From a virus (lineage: Duplodnaviria > Caudoviricetes), in the IMG/VR virus record IMGVR_UViG_3300020044_010367, positions 1 through 28,435 of that record: DNA of 28,435 bases. The stretch is one strand, 5' to 3'. A program made the translations under genes and the position numbers. The notes beneath the pieces were generated by a model. The model did not search any database. It saw only the letters and a program-made list of their open reading frames with translations, and was not told the DNA's origin. Below are positions 4,839 through 25,448 of the stretch, one piece after another. The first letter of the stretch is position 1. The number at the start of each line of letters is the position of its first letter.

Positions 4839-6379
4839 TGGCAATCACCATAACACAACAACCAAACGCAGATGCTCATTTTTCGGCATTTCACCCATTG
4901 CCAATCAAATGCACATCTAACAGGGCAAACATTGTTAACATTAAGGCCGTAGTCAGAGAGGGAAGCACAGGCAATGCAATTGCCACAATTCGCAAACCTT
5001 ACGATATTGGTACAATTAACAATTTTACTATTGACATTTTCTCTATAGTTCAGTCATTGGTGACTTATGATTTGCCTTTATTCGGGTTCCATAGTCAATG
5101 CACAAACTCATATCAATATATTTACCTGAGTTTGACCGAAGAATATTTGTCTGGTGGAATTTTGGTCATTGGCTCAAACGTATCAACAAATAAATTCAAT
5201 GTCCACAATGTAGCAATTAACAGATTGGAGCAAACTGCAACCGATTTTGCGAGTACAATCCTATCATTTGACAACGGAGAGGCACGAATTCCAATAGGTA
5301 GTGAGGATTCGTATTATATCCAAGCTATTAAAACAGGGACATTTGACCATTTGCAAGTGACTGTATATTATTCAAATGGAACTACGGCCACATTCAATGA
5401 CCCAATTGCATGGGGAAGCGACGAGCGTTGGAATATCAGTTGCGGTCCGTTTTACATTGTCAATGTTTTGGGGGCAAATTCTGACATTGTAAAATATACG
5501 GTTGGAATTGCGGATGCCGGAAATATAATTGTATCAAATTTACTGACCTTTGTAATTGACAATTCTTGCTCAATTGACCCTGTTAAATTGACTTATTTAA
5601 ACCAAAGAGGGGCATTTAATACATTTACATTTAAGACCAAAATAGTTTTCAAGGAAAGTGTAAAAAAAGAACTTTGGAGCAAAAGAAAAGAGGTCGGAGT
5701 TGGTTATAGTTTATCTTCAAATACTCCAGAAGTCGGATTATTCAAAGATGAGACAATTACAAAATACGAAATTGAATCTCAACCAATACATTCGGCATTT
5801 ATGAATGAACTAAGAGAAATTCTTTACTCAAAGGCCGTATTTTTTACAATTTATCAAAGCTATATTGCAAATTATGGCTCAAATGTGGTCAATAATGGCA
5901 CATTTAACACGATTGCCGGGTGGACAACATCGGTTAGCTTATCTGGTACGCTAAGTTTTGCCGGAAATAAGGTCACATTTTACGATCCGGTCGCAGACTC
6001 AATTGCCTTAGTCGAACAATCAGGTATTTTAACTATTGGAGAAACTTACCGGGTTACGGCATCGGTTGCCAATAACAACGGAGTCCAAATTACTGCAAAC
6101 GGAAACCTATTGGCAAACCCAAACCAAAACGGCACACTATCCGTCGATTTTACGGCAAATAGTACAGGAATTAGCTTTGAACTCAGCAATGGACCAACAA
6201 CCGGAGGAGTTGAATTTGACAACGTGACTATTTACGCAATTCGCACCTACCAATTATCAATATACTTGCCAATGCTGATTGATGATGGAGAGTATACCGT
6301 TGCCGACAACAGGAAGAGAGAAAATAAATTAAGTTTTTCAGCAATTTTCGCAAATAAGAACTACAATGGAATCGGTTGA
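4838..6379 (+). CDS. Virion structural protein, probably distal-tail-like with an inserted carbohydrate-binding-type domain
   Basis: YLNQRGAFNTFTF motif; NVVNNGTF...GETYRVT...FDNVTI jelly-roll signature. Confidence 0.55.
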   Translation: MAITITQQPNADAHFSAFHPLPIKCTSNRANIVNIKAVVREGSTGNAIATIRKPYDIGTINNFTIDIFSIVQSLVTYDLPLFGFHSQCTNSYQYIYLSLTEEYLSGGILVIGSNVSTNKFNVHNVAINRLEQTATDFASTILSFDNGEARIPIGSEDSYYIQAIKTGTFDHLQVTVYYSNGTTATFNDPIAWGSDERWNISCGPFYIVNVLGANSDIVKYTVGIADAGNIIVSNLLTFVIDNSCSIDPVKLTYLNQRGAFNTFTFKTKIVFKESVKKELWSKRKEVGVGYSLSSNTPEVGLFKDETITKYEIESQPIHSAFMNELREILYSKAVFFTIYQSYIANYGSNVVNNGTFNTIAGWTTSVSLSGTLSFAGNKVTFYDPVADSIALVEQSGILTIGETYRVTASVANNNGVQITANGNLLANPNQNGTLSVDFTANSTGISFELSNGPTTGGVEFDNVTIYAIRTYQLSIYLPMLIDDGEYTVADNRKRENKLSFSAIFANKNYNGIG

Positions 6380-11194: not shown

Positions 11195-11202
11195 TATATT
11201 TG
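11195..11202 (+). promoter_or_regulatory. -7 box TATATTTG (ctatatttgcaaag) of putative sRNA-1
   Basis: 14-mer identical to 20601-20614. Confidence 0.55.
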
Positions 11203-11205
11203 CAA

Positions 11206-11268
11206 AGGTTTTTTTCATTGTTTTATTAAATTTGTCAAGAAAGGTCGCAGTAAAATGTGGCCTTTTTT
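11206..11268 (+). ncRNA. Putative small RNA 1 (U-rich, antisense to an ATG-start context)
   Basis: Promoter box, ~60 nt without an ORF, terminator. Confidence 0.4.
11240..11268 (+). terminator. Intrinsic terminator after the TMP gene
   Basis: aaaggtcgca-gtaaaa-tgtggccttt stem plus T tract. Confidence 0.75.
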
Positions 11269-11282
11269 GTTTATTTTTGCAC

Positions 11283-11477
11283 ATGCAATTGTCTGAAATT
11301 GATAAGTTTAAAGAGATTATTAATTTGTCAAAGTATGACAAGTCAAAGAATTTTAGGCTTTTGCACAATTGCAATTCTATCCTAAAAAAATACCAGATAG
11401 GAGGAGTTGATAATTGTTTGAACTGTTCTTTTTTTTTAATTCAAAATCAATGCAGAAAATACCTAAATCAGATTTAA
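11283..11477 (+). CDS. Hypothetical Cys-containing protein (start corrected to ATG 11283, 3 nt after TATTTTTG at 11272-11279)
   Basis: The upstream extension in the ORF track crosses a terminator; CLNC motif. Confidence 0.6.
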   Translation: MQLSEIDKFKEIINLSKYDKSKNFRLLHNCNSILKKYQIGGVDNCLNCSFFLIQNQCRKYLNQI

Positions 11478-20160: not shown

Positions 20161-20592
20161 ATGATGATAAGTGAGCATTTTGATGTAAGAGAGTTCGTCT
20201 CTCCGGAAACATGGGAAAGAAACGGAGCCGATTCCGTCAAATTCATTGATCCTAAATTAGTGGCATTGGCAGAATTTCTGAGAAAGTATTTTGGTGCAAG
20301 TGTAATTATCAATAATTGGCACACCGGAGGCAATTTTAAAAATCGAGGATTTAGAGATTACGATTCAAAAGTAGGTGGGTTTACCTCTCAGCATAGGCAA
20401 GGCAAGGCATTTGATTGCAATATTAAAGGCTTTACAATTGCAGATTTGCATAAAGCTATAAAGAAAGACGAGCGGACCTTTTACAATGCCGGATTAAGGA
20501 GAATTGAGGACATAAAAGATGCACCAACTTGGCTACATTGCGACATCAAGGACGGAATTGACAATAAAATTGTGACATTTAGGGCGAAATAA
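20161..20592 (+). CDS. Endolysin, peptidase M15 family
   Basis: RGFR, SQH..GKAFD, WLHCD Zn ligands. Confidence 0.88.
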   Translation: MMISEHFDVREFVSPETWERNGADSVKFIDPKLVALAEFLRKYFGASVIINNWHTGGNFKNRGFRDYDSKVGGFTSQHRQGKAFDCNIKGFTIADLHKAIKKDERTFYNAGLRRIEDIKDAPTWLHCDIKDGIDNKIVTFRAK

Positions 20593-20601
20593 AAAAATTG
20601 C

Positions 20602-20609
20602 TATATTTG
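20602..20609 (+). promoter_or_regulatory. -7 box TATATTTG of putative sRNA-2
   Basis: Consensus match; no ORF before the terminator. Confidence 0.6.
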
Positions 20610-20612
20610 CAA

Positions 20613-20673
20613 AGATTCTTTATTTGCTGACCCATTAAAGAAAAAGGAGACCAAGAAATTGGTCTTTTTTTTT
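20613..20673 (+). ncRNA. Putative trans-acting antisense small RNA 2 (two hairpins)
   Basis: Stem ttcttta/taaagaa with loop tttgctgacccat; complementary to 20717-20729 and 21517-21534. Confidence 0.6.
20643..20673 (+). terminator. Intrinsic terminator at the end of the late region
   Basis: agaccaa-GAAA-ttggtct plus long T tract. Confidence 0.85.
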
Positions 20674-20704
20674 GAAAAAAAATTTGCAGAATCAAAAATC
20701 TGTA

Positions 20705-20712
20705 TACATTTG
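20705..20712 (+). promoter_or_regulatory. Early promoter: -7 TACATTTG with -33 TTTG at 20683-20686
   Basis: Both Bacteroidota elements present. Confidence 0.7.
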
Positions 20713-20734
20713 CGCAGTCAGTAAATAAATTATA

Positions 20735-20899
20735 ATGGAAACAATAATCTTAACTCAGCCGTCTTTGCGAGGCTTCAAATATTCGCAATGCTTACCTCTA
20801 TTGTCGGTAATTGCCGACCAAAATGGACTGAATTTGTCCAAAATTCGGGATTTTCGGATTGCTAAGAGAATTTTGCTTATAAGTATGGCCCAAAATTAA
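20735..20899 (+). CDS. Hypothetical protein, 54 aa (METIILTQPSLRGFKYSQCL...)
   Basis: Manual translation; A-rich start after the promoter. Confidence 0.6.
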   Translation: METIILTQPSLRGFKYSQCLPLLSVIADQNGLNLSKIRDFRIAKRILLISMAQN

Positions 20900-20903
20900 T
20901 ATC

Positions 20904-21038
20904 ATGGGCAAAAAATCAAAAATTTTACTTATGTTTTATGTCATAATGGTATTTTTTACTTACATGGCAATCGAATTCTTTAAACATGCACAAATTTCTG
21001 TCAATCCATCTGCCAAATCTCATTATTCGCAATTTTAA
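20904..21038 (+). CDS. Small membrane protein, 44 aa (MGKKSKILLMFYVIMVFFTYMAIEFF...)
   Basis: Manual translation; single TM. Confidence 0.55.
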   Translation: MGKKSKILLMFYVIMVFFTYMAIEFFKHAQISVNPSAKSHYSQF

Positions 21039-21104
21039 AGCGATTTTTGAGTATTTCTTGGCAATTTCAATCATTTTATTAACTATTTATTTTTTTACGC
21101 TAAT

Positions 21105-21491
21105 ATGAATCTTTACGACTATTTACAAATTCCGCAAACTGAGTGGCTAATTGCCGACGAAACTGAGGCCAATTGGTTTTTAATTCATGTTATGAATGCC
21201 AACATTTACAAATATACTGTTAACCGGGGCGATTATTTTTATGAGTTTACCTTAAATGCTCCAGAATACAACTTACTCAAACTTAAAAAAACATGGTCCA
21301 AAAGAAAGGAAGTTTCTCAACCATTTAGTCTATTCGCTGCGGTCCATGCTTTGCAGGATCTAAGGGAAAAACATATTGGCGAAAAGGTCACAATCCGGAT
21401 GGAAAGCCATGCCAAATGTTCGGATTCTTCCCTATATTTAAAGGAGGTTGGATTCAAGGAATTGAATCAGTTTAAAAAAAGTTTATATTAA
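21105..21491 (+). CDS. Hypothetical protein
   Basis: ORF track. Confidence 0.7.
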   Translation: MNLYDYLQIPQTEWLIADETEANWFLIHVMNANIYKYTVNRGDYFYEFTLNAPEYNLLKLKKTWSKRKEVSQPFSLFAAVHALQDLREKHIGEKVTIRMESHAKCSDSSLYLKEVGFKELNQFKKSLY

Positions 21492-21504
21492 TCAAATTAA
21501 TTGT

Positions 21505-21512
21505 TATATTTG
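21505..21512 (+). promoter_or_regulatory. -7 box TATATTTG of the recombination operon
   Basis: Consensus match, intergenic. Confidence 0.65.
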
Positions 21513-21534
21513 CAAATCTTTAATCGTCAGCAAA

Positions 21535-21795
21535 ATGTTTTACAAAACCGAAATGCATGTCATTGGCTATGTCTGCCAATTCTGCAAACAATCTTATCTT
21601 GATTCTGAATATCATATCGACATGGTAGACCTTTGTCCACTATGCGATGAATGTTTTGAGTCAACCAATGAATTAATCTATAAATACGAAGGCAAAGCCG
21701 AATTTGATAGGCTATTTGCGAAGTATGGTCGCAAAGCGCAATGGGATTGCAGCGAGGACCAATTAATTTTTAAGTACGAGGACATTTACGTTTAA
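21535..21795 (+). CDS. Small putative Zn-finger protein
   Basis: CQFC...CPLCDEC. Confidence 0.65.
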   Translation: MFYKTEMHVIGYVCQFCKQSYLDSEYHIDMVDLCPLCDECFESTNELIYKYEGKAEFDRLFAKYGRKAQWDCSEDQLIFKYEDIYV

Positions 21796-21806
21796 TTTTT
21801 AATACA

Positions 21807-22187
21807 ATGATAAAACCAAAAAACATCGCCATACCTATGGCACAATTTGAGGATTTGACAGTTGGCAAACAATATGTCATTGAATCCGTTTCGGCAAAAG
21901 AATTCATTATTATAGACGATAATGAAGATTTCCAAGCCTTTCCGCTAAATATCAAAGGATTCAAATTTGATAAGCCGGAGCAAAGACTTATTCAGACAAC
22001 TAAATTGGAAGTCATGTCTAACTTTCTTGTTACTTATGAAATTGTTAAAATTGAGGACGGCATGAAGGTATTTGTTCGGACACTTGAGCAGACGGATATT
22101 CAGAATTTCCGCAACGATGTCGAGCATGAATTGGAAAATGCAATTGCTAACCCATCGGATTGGGTTTTTCGAACTATTTGGGAATAA
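21807..22187 (+). CDS. Hypothetical protein
   Basis: ORF; LTVGKQYVI SH3-like start. Confidence 0.65.
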   Translation: MIKPKNIAIPMAQFEDLTVGKQYVIESVSAKEFIIIDDNEDFQAFPLNIKGFKFDKPEQRLIQTTKLEVMSNFLVTYEIVKIEDGMKVFVRTLEQTDIQNFRNDVEHELENAIANPSDWVFRTIWE

Positions 22188-22213
22188 TTAATAATCAATA
22201 AATAAATAAAAAA

Positions 22214-23095
22214 ATGAATCTCACAACTAAAGATTTTTTCAAACAAGACTCGGTCCAATCTAAATTCAAAGAACTATTGGGCAACCGGGCAAATCAATTT
22301 ATCACATCGGTTTTGCAAATCGCAAACAACAATGCAATGTTGTCAAATGCGGATCCGGTCTCAATATACAATGCTGCGGCAACGGCTGCGGTCTTGGATT
22401 TGCCAATTAACCCTAATCTCGGATTTGCTTATATCATTCCATTTAATGAAAAACAAAAGGATGGAAGCTATGTGAGTAAGGCACAATTTCAAATCGGATA
22501 CAAAGGATTTATCCAATTGGCTCAAAGGAGCGGTCAGTTCAAAACTCTTAATTGCGTTGCAGTTTACGAGGGTGACGAGGATGGGGATGTTTACCAGAGA
22601 TTGATTAACATTATTCCAAAAAAGCCAAGCACCAATAACATAGTTGGATATGCGGCATTTTTTCAGTTATTAAACGGATTTGAGAAAGTGTACTACATGG
22701 ATAAATCTCAAATTGAGAGCCACGCTTTGAAATTCAGTCAAACCTACAAAAAGAATTTCGGAGTATGGAAAGACGATTTTGACTCGATGGCTAAAAAGAC
22801 GGTCATAAAATTGCTATTGAATAAATATGCCCCATTGAGCATTGAAATGCAAAAGGCGGTTATTACGGACCAAGCTATTATTAACGATGTTAATGGCGAG
22901 GATGTGACCTATTTGGACAATATTGCCAACCGACCAGAGAAGCAAAATCCAAAGGAAATTGAGCAGGAAAGATTGTGCCAATTAATAAAATCCTCTAAGT
23001 CGATTGACGATTTAAAGAAAGTTACAAAGGATGCCATATTTGGCGAAAAAGCTAACCAATTGTTTGACCAAAAATTAAAGGAATTAGATGTTTAA
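22214..23095 (+). CDS. recT: RecT-family single-strand annealing protein
   Basis: LPINPNLGFAYIIPF, QFQIGYKGFIQLAQRSG, W..DFDSMAKKTV. Confidence 0.93.
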   Translation: MNLTTKDFFKQDSVQSKFKELLGNRANQFITSVLQIANNNAMLSNADPVSIYNAAATAAVLDLPINPNLGFAYIIPFNEKQKDGSYVSKAQFQIGYKGFIQLAQRSGQFKTLNCVAVYEGDEDGDVYQRLINIIPKKPSTNNIVGYAAFFQLLNGFEKVYYMDKSQIESHALKFSQTYKKNFGVWKDDFDSMAKKTVIKLLLNKYAPLSIEMQKAVITDQAIINDVNGEDVTYLDNIANRPEKQNPKEIEQERLCQLIKSSKSIDDLKKVTKDAIFGEKANQLFDQKLKELDV

Positions 23096-23846
23096 CAATT
23101 ATTTATTCAGGTGTTCGGGCCTTGGCTACCTAATGACTGAGGCCCGGTCGAAGTCGAAAACCTTATCCGCAACCACAAAGAGTTATCTAAGGGACCAATT
23201 TATCAAAGTTAGGTTTGGAAGGACACAAGATTTGTCTAACAAATACTTAATTAAAGGAATTGCGGTCGAGGATGACTCAATAACTTTACTTTCGATGCAC
23301 ATGAGAGAAATGCTCACCAAAAACGAGGCAAAACTTACAAATGATTATTTGTCTGGAACTCCGGATTTAATTTATGGAGATGTTGTAATTGACATTAAAT
23401 CAAGGTGGGATATTTATTCCTATTTCAAAACAATTGACGAGCCAATGGATAAAATGAACTATTGGCAACTTGTCGGCTACATGGAACTAACCGGGTGCAA
23501 TAAAGCCAAAATTGTCAATACTTTAATTAATACTCCATTTGAGCAGATTAATAGTGAATTAAAGCGAGAGCAATACCAATGGTCCAATTCCGTCCCGGCA
23601 TGGAGAGAAATTGAAATTATAAAGAATTTGGTTTATGATTTCGAGACATTTGACAGATATGTTAATATGGTCACGACGGTCCAATCAGATGATGATAAAA
23701 AAATGTTTGATTCATTTGTTGAAGTAAATGGCCGGGTTAATATTGTTGAGATTCAGCGCAATGATAAAGATGTTGAGGACCTTTATAATAGAATTTTTGA
23801 GTCAAGAATTTACCTAAATTCTCTATGTAATAAATTCAGCAATTAA
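23088..23846 (+). CDS. YqaJ/lambda-exonuclease-like nuclease
   Basis: FRCS, GTPD, DIKS, YWQLVGYM (PD-(D/E)xK); adjacent to recT. Confidence 0.85.
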   Translation: MFNNYLFRCSGLGYLMTEARSKSKTLSATTKSYLRDQFIKVRFGRTQDLSNKYLIKGIAVEDDSITLLSMHMREMLTKNEAKLTNDYLSGTPDLIYGDVVIDIKSRWDIYSYFKTIDEPMDKMNYWQLVGYMELTGCNKAKIVNTLINTPFEQINSELKREQYQWSNSVPAWREIEIIKNLVYDFETFDRYVNMVTTVQSDDDKKMFDSFVEVNGRVNIVEIQRNDKDVEDLYNRIFESRIYLNSLCNKFSN

Positions 23847-24673: not shown

Positions 24674-24681
24674 TATATTTG
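24674..24681 (+). promoter_or_regulatory. -7 box TATATTTG of the replication operon
   Basis: Consensus match, intergenic. Confidence 0.65.
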
Positions 24682-24692
24682 CAAATTACAAC

Positions 24693-24778
24693 GATGTGGA
24701 CGGACATCTATAATTACATTTATGCTCAAATTGGGGGAAGGCCCGTCCGCCCGAACCCGATTTGGGCTTTTTTATTTT
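24693..24778 (+). promoter_or_regulatory. Structured 5' leader/attenuator with complementary loops GGACGG and CCGTCC
   Basis: Two hairpins; the second is a 12-bp stem followed by a T tract just before ATG 24780. Confidence 0.65.
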
Positions 24779-24779
24779 C

Positions 24780-25448
24780 ATGAATTCATATGAACTGACC
24801 AGACGATGGTTTGATTTTGCATTTGAGAATCCAGAGGCAAAAGTTCAGCATACGGCTTTGTTTTGTTGGATTATTGAACTCAACAACCGTCTTGGTTGGA
24901 AAGAGCAATTTGGACTGCCTACAATTTCGACAATGGAAGGTTTATCCATTGGAAACAAAAAAACATATTTGGCCGCACTAAATGAACTTGAAAAGTGGGG
25001 ATTTATTAAGATTATCAAGCTCAGCAAAAATCAATTTCAAGCGAATATTATTCAAATATGCCGTAGCAAAAAAGCCCCGGCATTGCAACCAGCATTAGAT
25101 ACGGCACTGCAACGGCACTGCAACGGCATTGCAACCGGCAGTGACCCTATAGATAAACAAGGAAACAATGAAACAAAGAAACAAGTAAACAATATTGCCA
25201 ATCGACAAATCGAATTTTTTGAAGAACTGAAAAATCATACTGAAAAGTACGGCAAGGAAATGGTCCGAAAGTTTTACGATTATTGGTCTGAAAAAACAAC
25301 AGACGGCCAAAAGATGAGGAAAGAAATGGAAAAAACATGGGAGACTGAAAAGAGATTGGCAAAATGGAAATCGAACAATTTTAATAACAACAATAAAAAT
25401 CAAAATGAACAACCGGAATTCAAAAAATTCAAAGGATATGAAGATTGA
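24780..25448 (+). CDS. Replication initiator (wHTH N-terminus, lambda O-like architecture)
   Basis: NRLGWK, wHTH, internal iterons, FYDYWSE..W C-terminus; upstream of dnaB. Confidence 0.75.
   Translation: MNSYELTRRWFDFAFENPEAKVQHTALFCWIIELNNRLGWKEQFGLPTISTMEGLSIGNKKTYLAALNELEKWGFIKIIKLSKNQFQANIIQICRSKKAPALQPALDTALQRHCNGIATGSDPIDKQGNNETKKQVNNIANRQIEFFEELKNHTEKYGKEMVRKFYDYWSEKTTDGQKMRKEMEKTWETEKRLAKWKSNNFNNNNKNQNEQPEFKKFKGYED
25078..25193 (+). repeat. Iteron-like repeats (cggcaYtgcaa x4 plus degenerate copies) then AAACAA repeats: probable origin
   Basis: Copies at 25078, 25102, 25113, 25124; A-rich tract at 25154-25193. Confidence 0.7.

Follow-up and report, generated by a model that had tools for sequence, protein, structure and literature searches.

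The window, by which we mean the whole 28,435-nt stretch analysed here, is the IMG/VR virus record IMGVR_UViG_3300020044_010367 (Duplodnaviria; Caudoviricetes). The record carries a 121-nt terminal repeat and 28,314 bp of unique sequence; CheckV put its completeness at 56, and the completeness call rests on the terminal repeat instead. Its 44 ORFs all lie on the + strand, and those named by PHROGs include a terminase, tape measure, head protease, portal, metallophosphoesterase, endolysin, RecT, exonuclease, DnaB and methylase. PHROGs found no integrase, repressor or antirepressor among the 44, in agreement with the original prediction of a phage without a recognisable CI; many small ORFs have no family, and one of these functions could be hidden there. 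A 69-aa ORF at 11450 has a weak HTH match (E 0.0012, below the cut-off).

The expression signals of the genome look Bacteroidota-like: a Shine-Dalgarno-like word is found at 2 of 38 ATG starts, and A stands at −3 in 23, at −6 in 24 and at −12 in 26 of them, which agrees with the available text of PMC6847099. It is from these signals that we infer the host of the phage. A genome scan by capsid alignment returned a single 3.2-kb contig from a bin labelled Terrimicrobiaceae, which is too short for naming a host and does not support Bacteroidota. The sequencing runs in which the genome is best represented are freshwater or lake metagenomes, and a contig in run X1 spans the region with 108 differences. 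The only run recorded as RNA (a metatranscriptome) yielded a single contig, which covers only 22028–22246 and not the intergenic unit described below; contigs show neither ends nor strand. Among cultured phages, blastn of 20580–21600 gave eight records, all short matches at E 0.3, and the best terL match was 30%.

The locus comprises the end of the late genes, a short intergenic unit and two early operons:

20161..20592, + strand: peptidase M15 endolysin, the last late gene (phrog_894, E 5e-21; PF08291, E 4e-5)
20602..20609, + strand: P1, a TAnnTTTG promoter-like box, TATATTTG, with predicted start at 20614
20614..20673, + strand: candidate 60-nt small RNA, a hairpin followed by a terminator (from sequence and folding)
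20617..20641, + strand: predicted hairpin with a 13-nt loop at 20623–20635
20623..20631, + strand: seed TTTGCTGAC, within the 13-nt loop in the predicted fold
20649..20673, + strand: intrinsic terminator-like stem (20649–20664) and nine T (20665–20673), common to P1 transcripts and late read-through transcripts
20683..20712, + strand: P2, early promoter (TTTG at 20683–20686, 18-nt spacer, TACATTTG at 20705–20712), with predicted start at 20717
20717..20729, + strand: target 1, positions +1 to +13 of the 18-nt leader (20717–20734) of the 54-aa ORF, predicted to pair with loop and 5' arm
20735..21491, + strand: P2 operon, ORFs of 54, 44 (hydrophobic) and 128 aa, none with a family at the curated cut-off
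21505..21512, + strand: P3, early promoter box, with predicted start at 21517
21517..21534, + strand: target 2, the whole 18-nt leader of the 86-aa ORF, predicted to pair with loop and 3' arm
21535..23846, + strand: P3 operon, an 86-aa Cys-rich ORF, a 126-aa ORF, RecT (22214–23095) and exonuclease (23088–23846)

Because the TAnnTTTG box is placed at −12 to −5 (PMC9723704, available text), we took the unit as 20614–20673 and both leaders as 18 nt. The endolysin stop codon sits 9 nt upstream of the P1 box, and no ORF of at least 40 aa starting with ATG, GTG or TTG is listed within the 60 nt. Folded as a whole, the unit scored z = −3.39, a value reached by 0 of 200 shuffles. The box at 20602, the ORF-less stretch of ~60 nt and the strong terminator were thus found where the original prediction had put them. 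Its ttcttta/taaagaa hairpin was also reproduced, with an arm pairing probability of ~0.9, though it is weak by itself (−3.2 kcal/mol; 20 of 200 shuffles equally good). Rfam returned no match at E≤1 in the window, its covariance models of the C4 and P4 CI RNAs included, and none at the gathering score in L082, L153, L372 and L374.

The RNA is complementary to both early leaders. Positions 20619–20631 pair with 20717–20729 over 13 of 13 nt with one G-U, and 20623–20641 pair with 21517–21534 as 9 + 8 bp across an internal loop of 2x1, both as had been claimed. Co-folding with the P2 and P3 leaders gained −14.6 and −12.2 kcal/mol, respectively, with the terminator retained. The two leaders share the box GTCAGYAAA, which occurs at four sites on the + strand (2478, 12752, 20717 and 21526), all four anticipated, and at three on the − strand (5547, 18418 and 20631). 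Downstream of P2 there is no strong terminator as far as 24749, only a weak one at 23353, so that P2 transcripts would also carry target 2. Within the P3 operon, recT has a leader of its own, 26 nt past the preceding stop. The 54-aa ORF of the P2 operon has no match among cultured phages, one 98% homolog elsewhere and no usable Atlas match; several short hairpins lie within it (20760–20910; z −1.84 for 20800–20945, reached by 9 of 200 shuffles). The 44-aa ORF of this operon (20904–21038), also without a family, has a basic N-terminus and a hydrophobic stretch and is possibly a membrane or exclusion peptide.

We compared this pairing with chance by scoring the RNA against all start regions and against shuffled controls. 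With accessibility included, the two leaders ranked first and second among 54 start regions (−12.9 and −11.7; next −7.8). When the 5' part was dinucleotide-shuffled 400 times, the best score was reached by 15 shuffles, the second by 2 and the sum by 3, and 2 of the 400 placed these same two leaders on top. Among 161 promoter-proximal leaders, taken from fetched loci of at most 45% GC with an A-content filter that removed the window's own P3 leader, the P2 leader ranked first (−13.0; next −9.8), and GTCARYAAA occurred only in the window and in its relative G001. Of 154 other leaders, 3 matched the window RNA and 4 the G001 RNA perfectly over 9 nt. On the + strand of the whole genome, the strongest site was a terL coding site at 2475–2495 (−16.3), with 21517 at rank 3 and 20717 at rank 7; by duplex energy without accessibility, the P2 target was not in the top 15. 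The terL site fits a chance site: in a 98% terL relative the first nine letters of its 9-mer are kept and the extension is altered by silent substitutions, and in G001 and G011 the core is absent, a serine codon being replaced. Complementarity to several start regions beyond chance, by which a trans-encoded base-pairing sRNA is recognised, is present at this locus.

Strain variants gave a second view of the unit. L168 and L169 align across the region, and variable positions numbered 0 of 60 in the unit, 0 of 18 in the P2 leader and 0 of the 16 covered in the P3 leader. Third codon positions varied at 40 of 144 in the endolysin, 33 of 129 in the 128-aa ORF and 6 of 55 and 6 of 45 in the two small ORFs, and another spacer varied at 7 of 66. 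The spacer ahead of P2 is nearly invariant too (1 of 43), and L168 and L169 are identical to each other over the unit. For these reasons the invariance shows a constraint on the unit but not its cause.

A more distant comparison came from G001 (L081, L082 and L090), which we counted as one lineage because two contigs are identical here. It is 83% identical to the window in terL, 74% in the capsid, 73% in the endolysin and 56% in RecT, and has the same order of endolysin, box (TACCTTTG), hairpin with an unrelated stem, and terminator. The box lies ~10 nt past the stop and differs from that of the window only at the two free positions of TAnnTTTG. The G001 hairpin loop holds TTTATTGAC, and its recT-operon leader, 2.6 kb downstream, begins GTCAATAAA; relative to the window, the same two positions are changed in the seed and in the leader. 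Cognate duplexes (window and G001) reached −19.2 and −11.8, compared with −8.5 and −6.8 for the crossed pairs. The recT-operon leader is the only target common to the two genomes, and the G001 P2 leader, which adjoins the unit, does not match the seed.

The statistics for G001 are mixed. In a pre-chosen test with the start trimmed, the energy was reached by 37 of 2000 shuffles, and the 9-nt perfect match by 165 of 5000, or 333 of 5000 over three leaders. The G001 duplex is weak (−6.5, rank 5 of 161), and when the scoring took in all 45 start regions and kept the upstream DNA, 17 and 46 of 60 shuffles did as well, which is not significant. An 11-mer common to the window and G001 RNAs is not significant alone (484 of 2000 shuffles). 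The compensatory change between loop and leader that the original prediction had called for is thus seen as a joint difference, in a single lineage, at two positions and with a weak duplex.

Scans of viral, metagenome and genome sequences gave no third lineage; seven endolysins at 69–91% identity were also found. In viral contigs covering about half of the collection, the promoter-plus-seed pattern occurred at 119 loci, with a terminator only in the G001 lineage; the other 118 were taken as chance. The leader opening GTCAATAA is found in G002–G005 and G011, and no matching unit was found in these genomes (G004 complete, the others partial) or, with this seed, in five terL relatives at 58–67% (G016–G020). 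Several other candidates were set aside: the G007 and G008 sequences stop within the endolysin, the region is missing from G011 and G013, and G005 and G006 share the late genes and have a different lysin and an inverted early module without this seed. A 99% RecT piece, L009, is rearranged and lacks the region; at 5001–5009 its RecT fragment stands head-on against an inverted exonuclease-dnaB block, probably an assembly chimera. A late-early leader is common to G001 (22024), G005 (4913) and G011 (8004). It starts GTCAATAAC in G005 and G011 and is without GTC in G001, the genome whose own RNA would pair with it, a possible case of avoidance and the only one.

The observation is thus confirmed as a real feature of the sequence, and the unit is probably a regulatory RNA. 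Our preferred reading, to which we incline with some reserve, is that the 60 nt are a gene for a trans-acting sRNA that would dampen early translation via both leaders. The antisense reading is partly supported, by the start-region ranking, the strain invariance and the joint seed/target difference in G001. Both leaders are predicted to meet the same 9-nt loop seed, after which the P2 leader would go on to pair with the 5' arm and the P3 leader with the 3' arm, and the weak stem would open. The predicted duplex would cover −18 to −6 (P2) or −18 to −1 (P3) relative to the start codon, and ribosome loading on the first genes of both operons would be blocked. P1, P2 and P3 all follow the housekeeping consensus and would become active together when the phage enters; the RNA, if stable, would accumulate and lower early synthesis after a delay, and late transcripts ending at the same terminator would reinforce the shut-down. 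Delayed negative feedback would be the simplest role, given that the three promoters share one consensus.

The original prediction went further, to a multi-target sRNA that silences early operons and might act as a timing, carrier-state or superinfection switch. Its antisense part gained the support just described, but the pairing is confined to the leaders in front of the first genes (the 54-aa and 86-aa ORFs). Since recT moreover has its own leader, operon-wide silencing would need polarity or decay, by which downstream genes would follow the first. A bolder version, which we regard as rather doubtful, would make this one RNA the early-gene off switch of a phage without integrase or repressor. 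The two-armed hairpin would read a 9-nt address shared by the 5' ends of the two early messages, time their shut-off and, when enough RNA has built up, block incoming phages that carry this address; seed changes would define exclusion groups, and related Bacteroidota phages would fill the slot between late and early genes with interchangeable anti-leader RNAs.

The nearest rival concerns the source of the RNA, because 20649 is the first strong terminator-like site past the late genes. If P1 is weak or idle, the loop could act from the 3' end of late mRNA or from a cut fragment, and late transcription would then shut off early translation. P1 has only TTTA at −33 and G001 has no clear −33 sequence, as this would predict; yet G001 keeps the TAnnTTTG box ~10 nt past the stop, changed only at free positions, and on average one such box falls in every 860 nt or so of each strand (33 on the + strand). 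We consider this source unlikely. We also find it improbable that the unit is a chance product or relic, namely a late-operon terminator with an A/U-rich 3' UTR whose matches stem from composition and from duplicated promoter-proximal sequence at P1 and P3, so that any hairpin there would mirror the P3 leader. P1 and P3 are indeed 87% alike over 23 nt and both continue TCTTTA, the terL coding site outscores both targets, other leaders have perfect 9-nt matches to the two RNAs (3 and 4 of 154), and shuffles also give the G001 match (165 and, over three leaders, 333 of 5000). Against this, two separate leaders stand at the top of the ranking, the G/C-bearing seed lies outside the shared promoter stretch, only the G001 lineage has a terminator among the 119 promoter-plus-seed loci, and the extension of the terL site changes silently in the 98% relative, its core being absent in G001 and G011.

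Two further explanations would leave the complementarity without a trans-acting RNA. GTCAGYAAA might be bound as a DNA operator by a protein of the phage or its host, just past three promoters and inverted at P1: the box stands at +10 to +18 of P3 and, inverted, of P1, promoters in other phages are likewise followed by GTCAATAA, and the 69-aa ORF at 11450 has its weak HTH match. Against an operator, the complementarity continues along the two arms of the stem (13 and 17 bp), two lineages whose stems are unrelated both have the inverted copy in a predicted loop, the single variable base is one that a G-U pair allows, and the box is not palindromic, and we hold this explanation to be quite unlikely. 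Alternatively, the inverted repeat 20602–20631/20717–20746, with its 85-nt spacing, could let read-through transcripts fold the seed onto the P2 leader 85 nt downstream, a cis insulator keeping late read-through from re-expressing early genes. The stronger target lies 900 nt off, and in G001 the adjacent leader is unmatched and the only matching one is 2.6 kb away; an insulator therefore seems very improbable to us.

A trans-acting sRNA of the preferred kind would have partial counterparts among known systems. The c4 RNA of P1/P7 is, in the available text of PMC12197685, a 77-nt phage RNA that acts in trans, close to the start region of an mRNA of the same phage; its pairing sequences are believed to sit in loops. 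The candidate is likewise a short phage RNA, predicted to aim in trans at start regions of its own mRNAs. Unlike c4, which controls an antirepressor in temperate coliphages, its targets would be the genes that head two early operons; the window yielded no antirepressor, repressor or integrase, and the Rfam C4 model is unmatched. P22 sar, a 68/69-nt phage RNA blocking translation initiation of a phage mRNA (same source), has one target, ant, in a temperate phage, whereas here two distant leaders would be met with partial complementarity. The CI RNA of the satellite phage P4 is a processing product of the transcript under its control and brings about early termination (PMC10111431, available text). 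The likeness to it is looser, namely RNA-only repression of early functions through predicted pairing with phage transcripts; unlike P4 CI, the unit has its own promoter box and terminator, would cover translation starts and has no Rfam match. Because of the missing Rfam match and the lack of a linked antirepressor, we did not file the unit as a member of the c4, sar or CI kind.

Host sRNAs offer a further parallel, as far as the available text of PMC7366714 and PMC11697453 describes them. GibS and FopS of Bacteroides thetaiotaomicron repress translation by pairing at start regions, and the downstream genes of the operon follow. In sequence features the unit resembles them: it has the TAnnTTTG promoter of the phylum, is intergenic, carries its own terminator and is of similar length (FopS ~65–70 nt), and its predicted pairing lies near the start codon of the operon's first gene. 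By the same descriptions, GibS and FopS differ in being host RNAs with single-stranded 5' seeds (R1/R1') and metabolic or transporter targets, as against a predicted-loop seed for the phage's own leaders here. According to the available text of PMC11697453, a FopS sequence is present in one phage. A search of the open-licence literature turned up no Bacteroidota phage RNA described as targeting the early leaders of its own phage.

A mechanism of this kind would bear on how phages without a repressor or polymerase of their own shut off early genes in most uncultured groups, and, with its address read from short leaders, it would suit hosts not using Shine-Dalgarno pairing. The case is unusually easy to test: the RNA has 60 nt, its two targets have 18 nt each, and nature supplies a seed/target variant from which the failing crossed pairs can be predicted. 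If the preferred reading is true, a class of self-targeting, multi-leader phage sRNAs would be added for Bacteroidota, together with a small element for adjusting gene expression in these bacteria.

Short units of a box plus a terminator also occur elsewhere. A detector run over 246 loci gave 52 distinct units. G002–G004 each have one directly 3' of the last late gene, and G005 and G006 have one divergent from the first early promoter; these units are U-rich, mirroring A-rich leaders or start codons. On their own start regions the best score was reached by 0 of 60 shuffles for G004 and 1 of 60 for G005, and the units score well on foreign genomes too. The best G006 match was the opposite strand of the unit itself and hence not a target. 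Units opposite the early-gene strand lie at G005 12408 (+), G006 2647 (−), G016 30956 (+) and G011 10817 (−), the first of which pairs best with its own early leaders. In another phage family (L153 3187–3260, L155 5960, L160 and L166 8975), a box, U-rich stretch and terminator follow the metallophosphoesterase gene directly and precede the first early promoter, and the terminator stem carries substitutions between members.

Within the window, five terminator-like sites lie on the + strand between 100 and 28200, three of them with a G/C-closed stem and a long T run. The boxes at 11195, 20602, 21505 and 24674 all read TATATTTGCAAA, and this box is found 40–75 nt upstream of each of the three strongest terminators. 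At 11195–11270 (+), between the tape-measure gene and the HTH-like ORF, a promoter box, a 30-nt U-rich stretch and a terminator mirror AUG-AAA-type start codons; the opposite strand is a 23-codon ORF. This unit is kept in G007 and G013, with a similar 5' end in G006 (2647, −); it was equalled by 8 and 3 of 60 shuffles and scores higher on three other genomes than on its own. At 24674–24780 (+), a promoter box is followed by a ~60-nt leader, a G/C hairpin with a T run and then the ATG of a replication-initiator-like ORF. This element looks like an attenuator and is kept, with substitutions, in L009 and L169.
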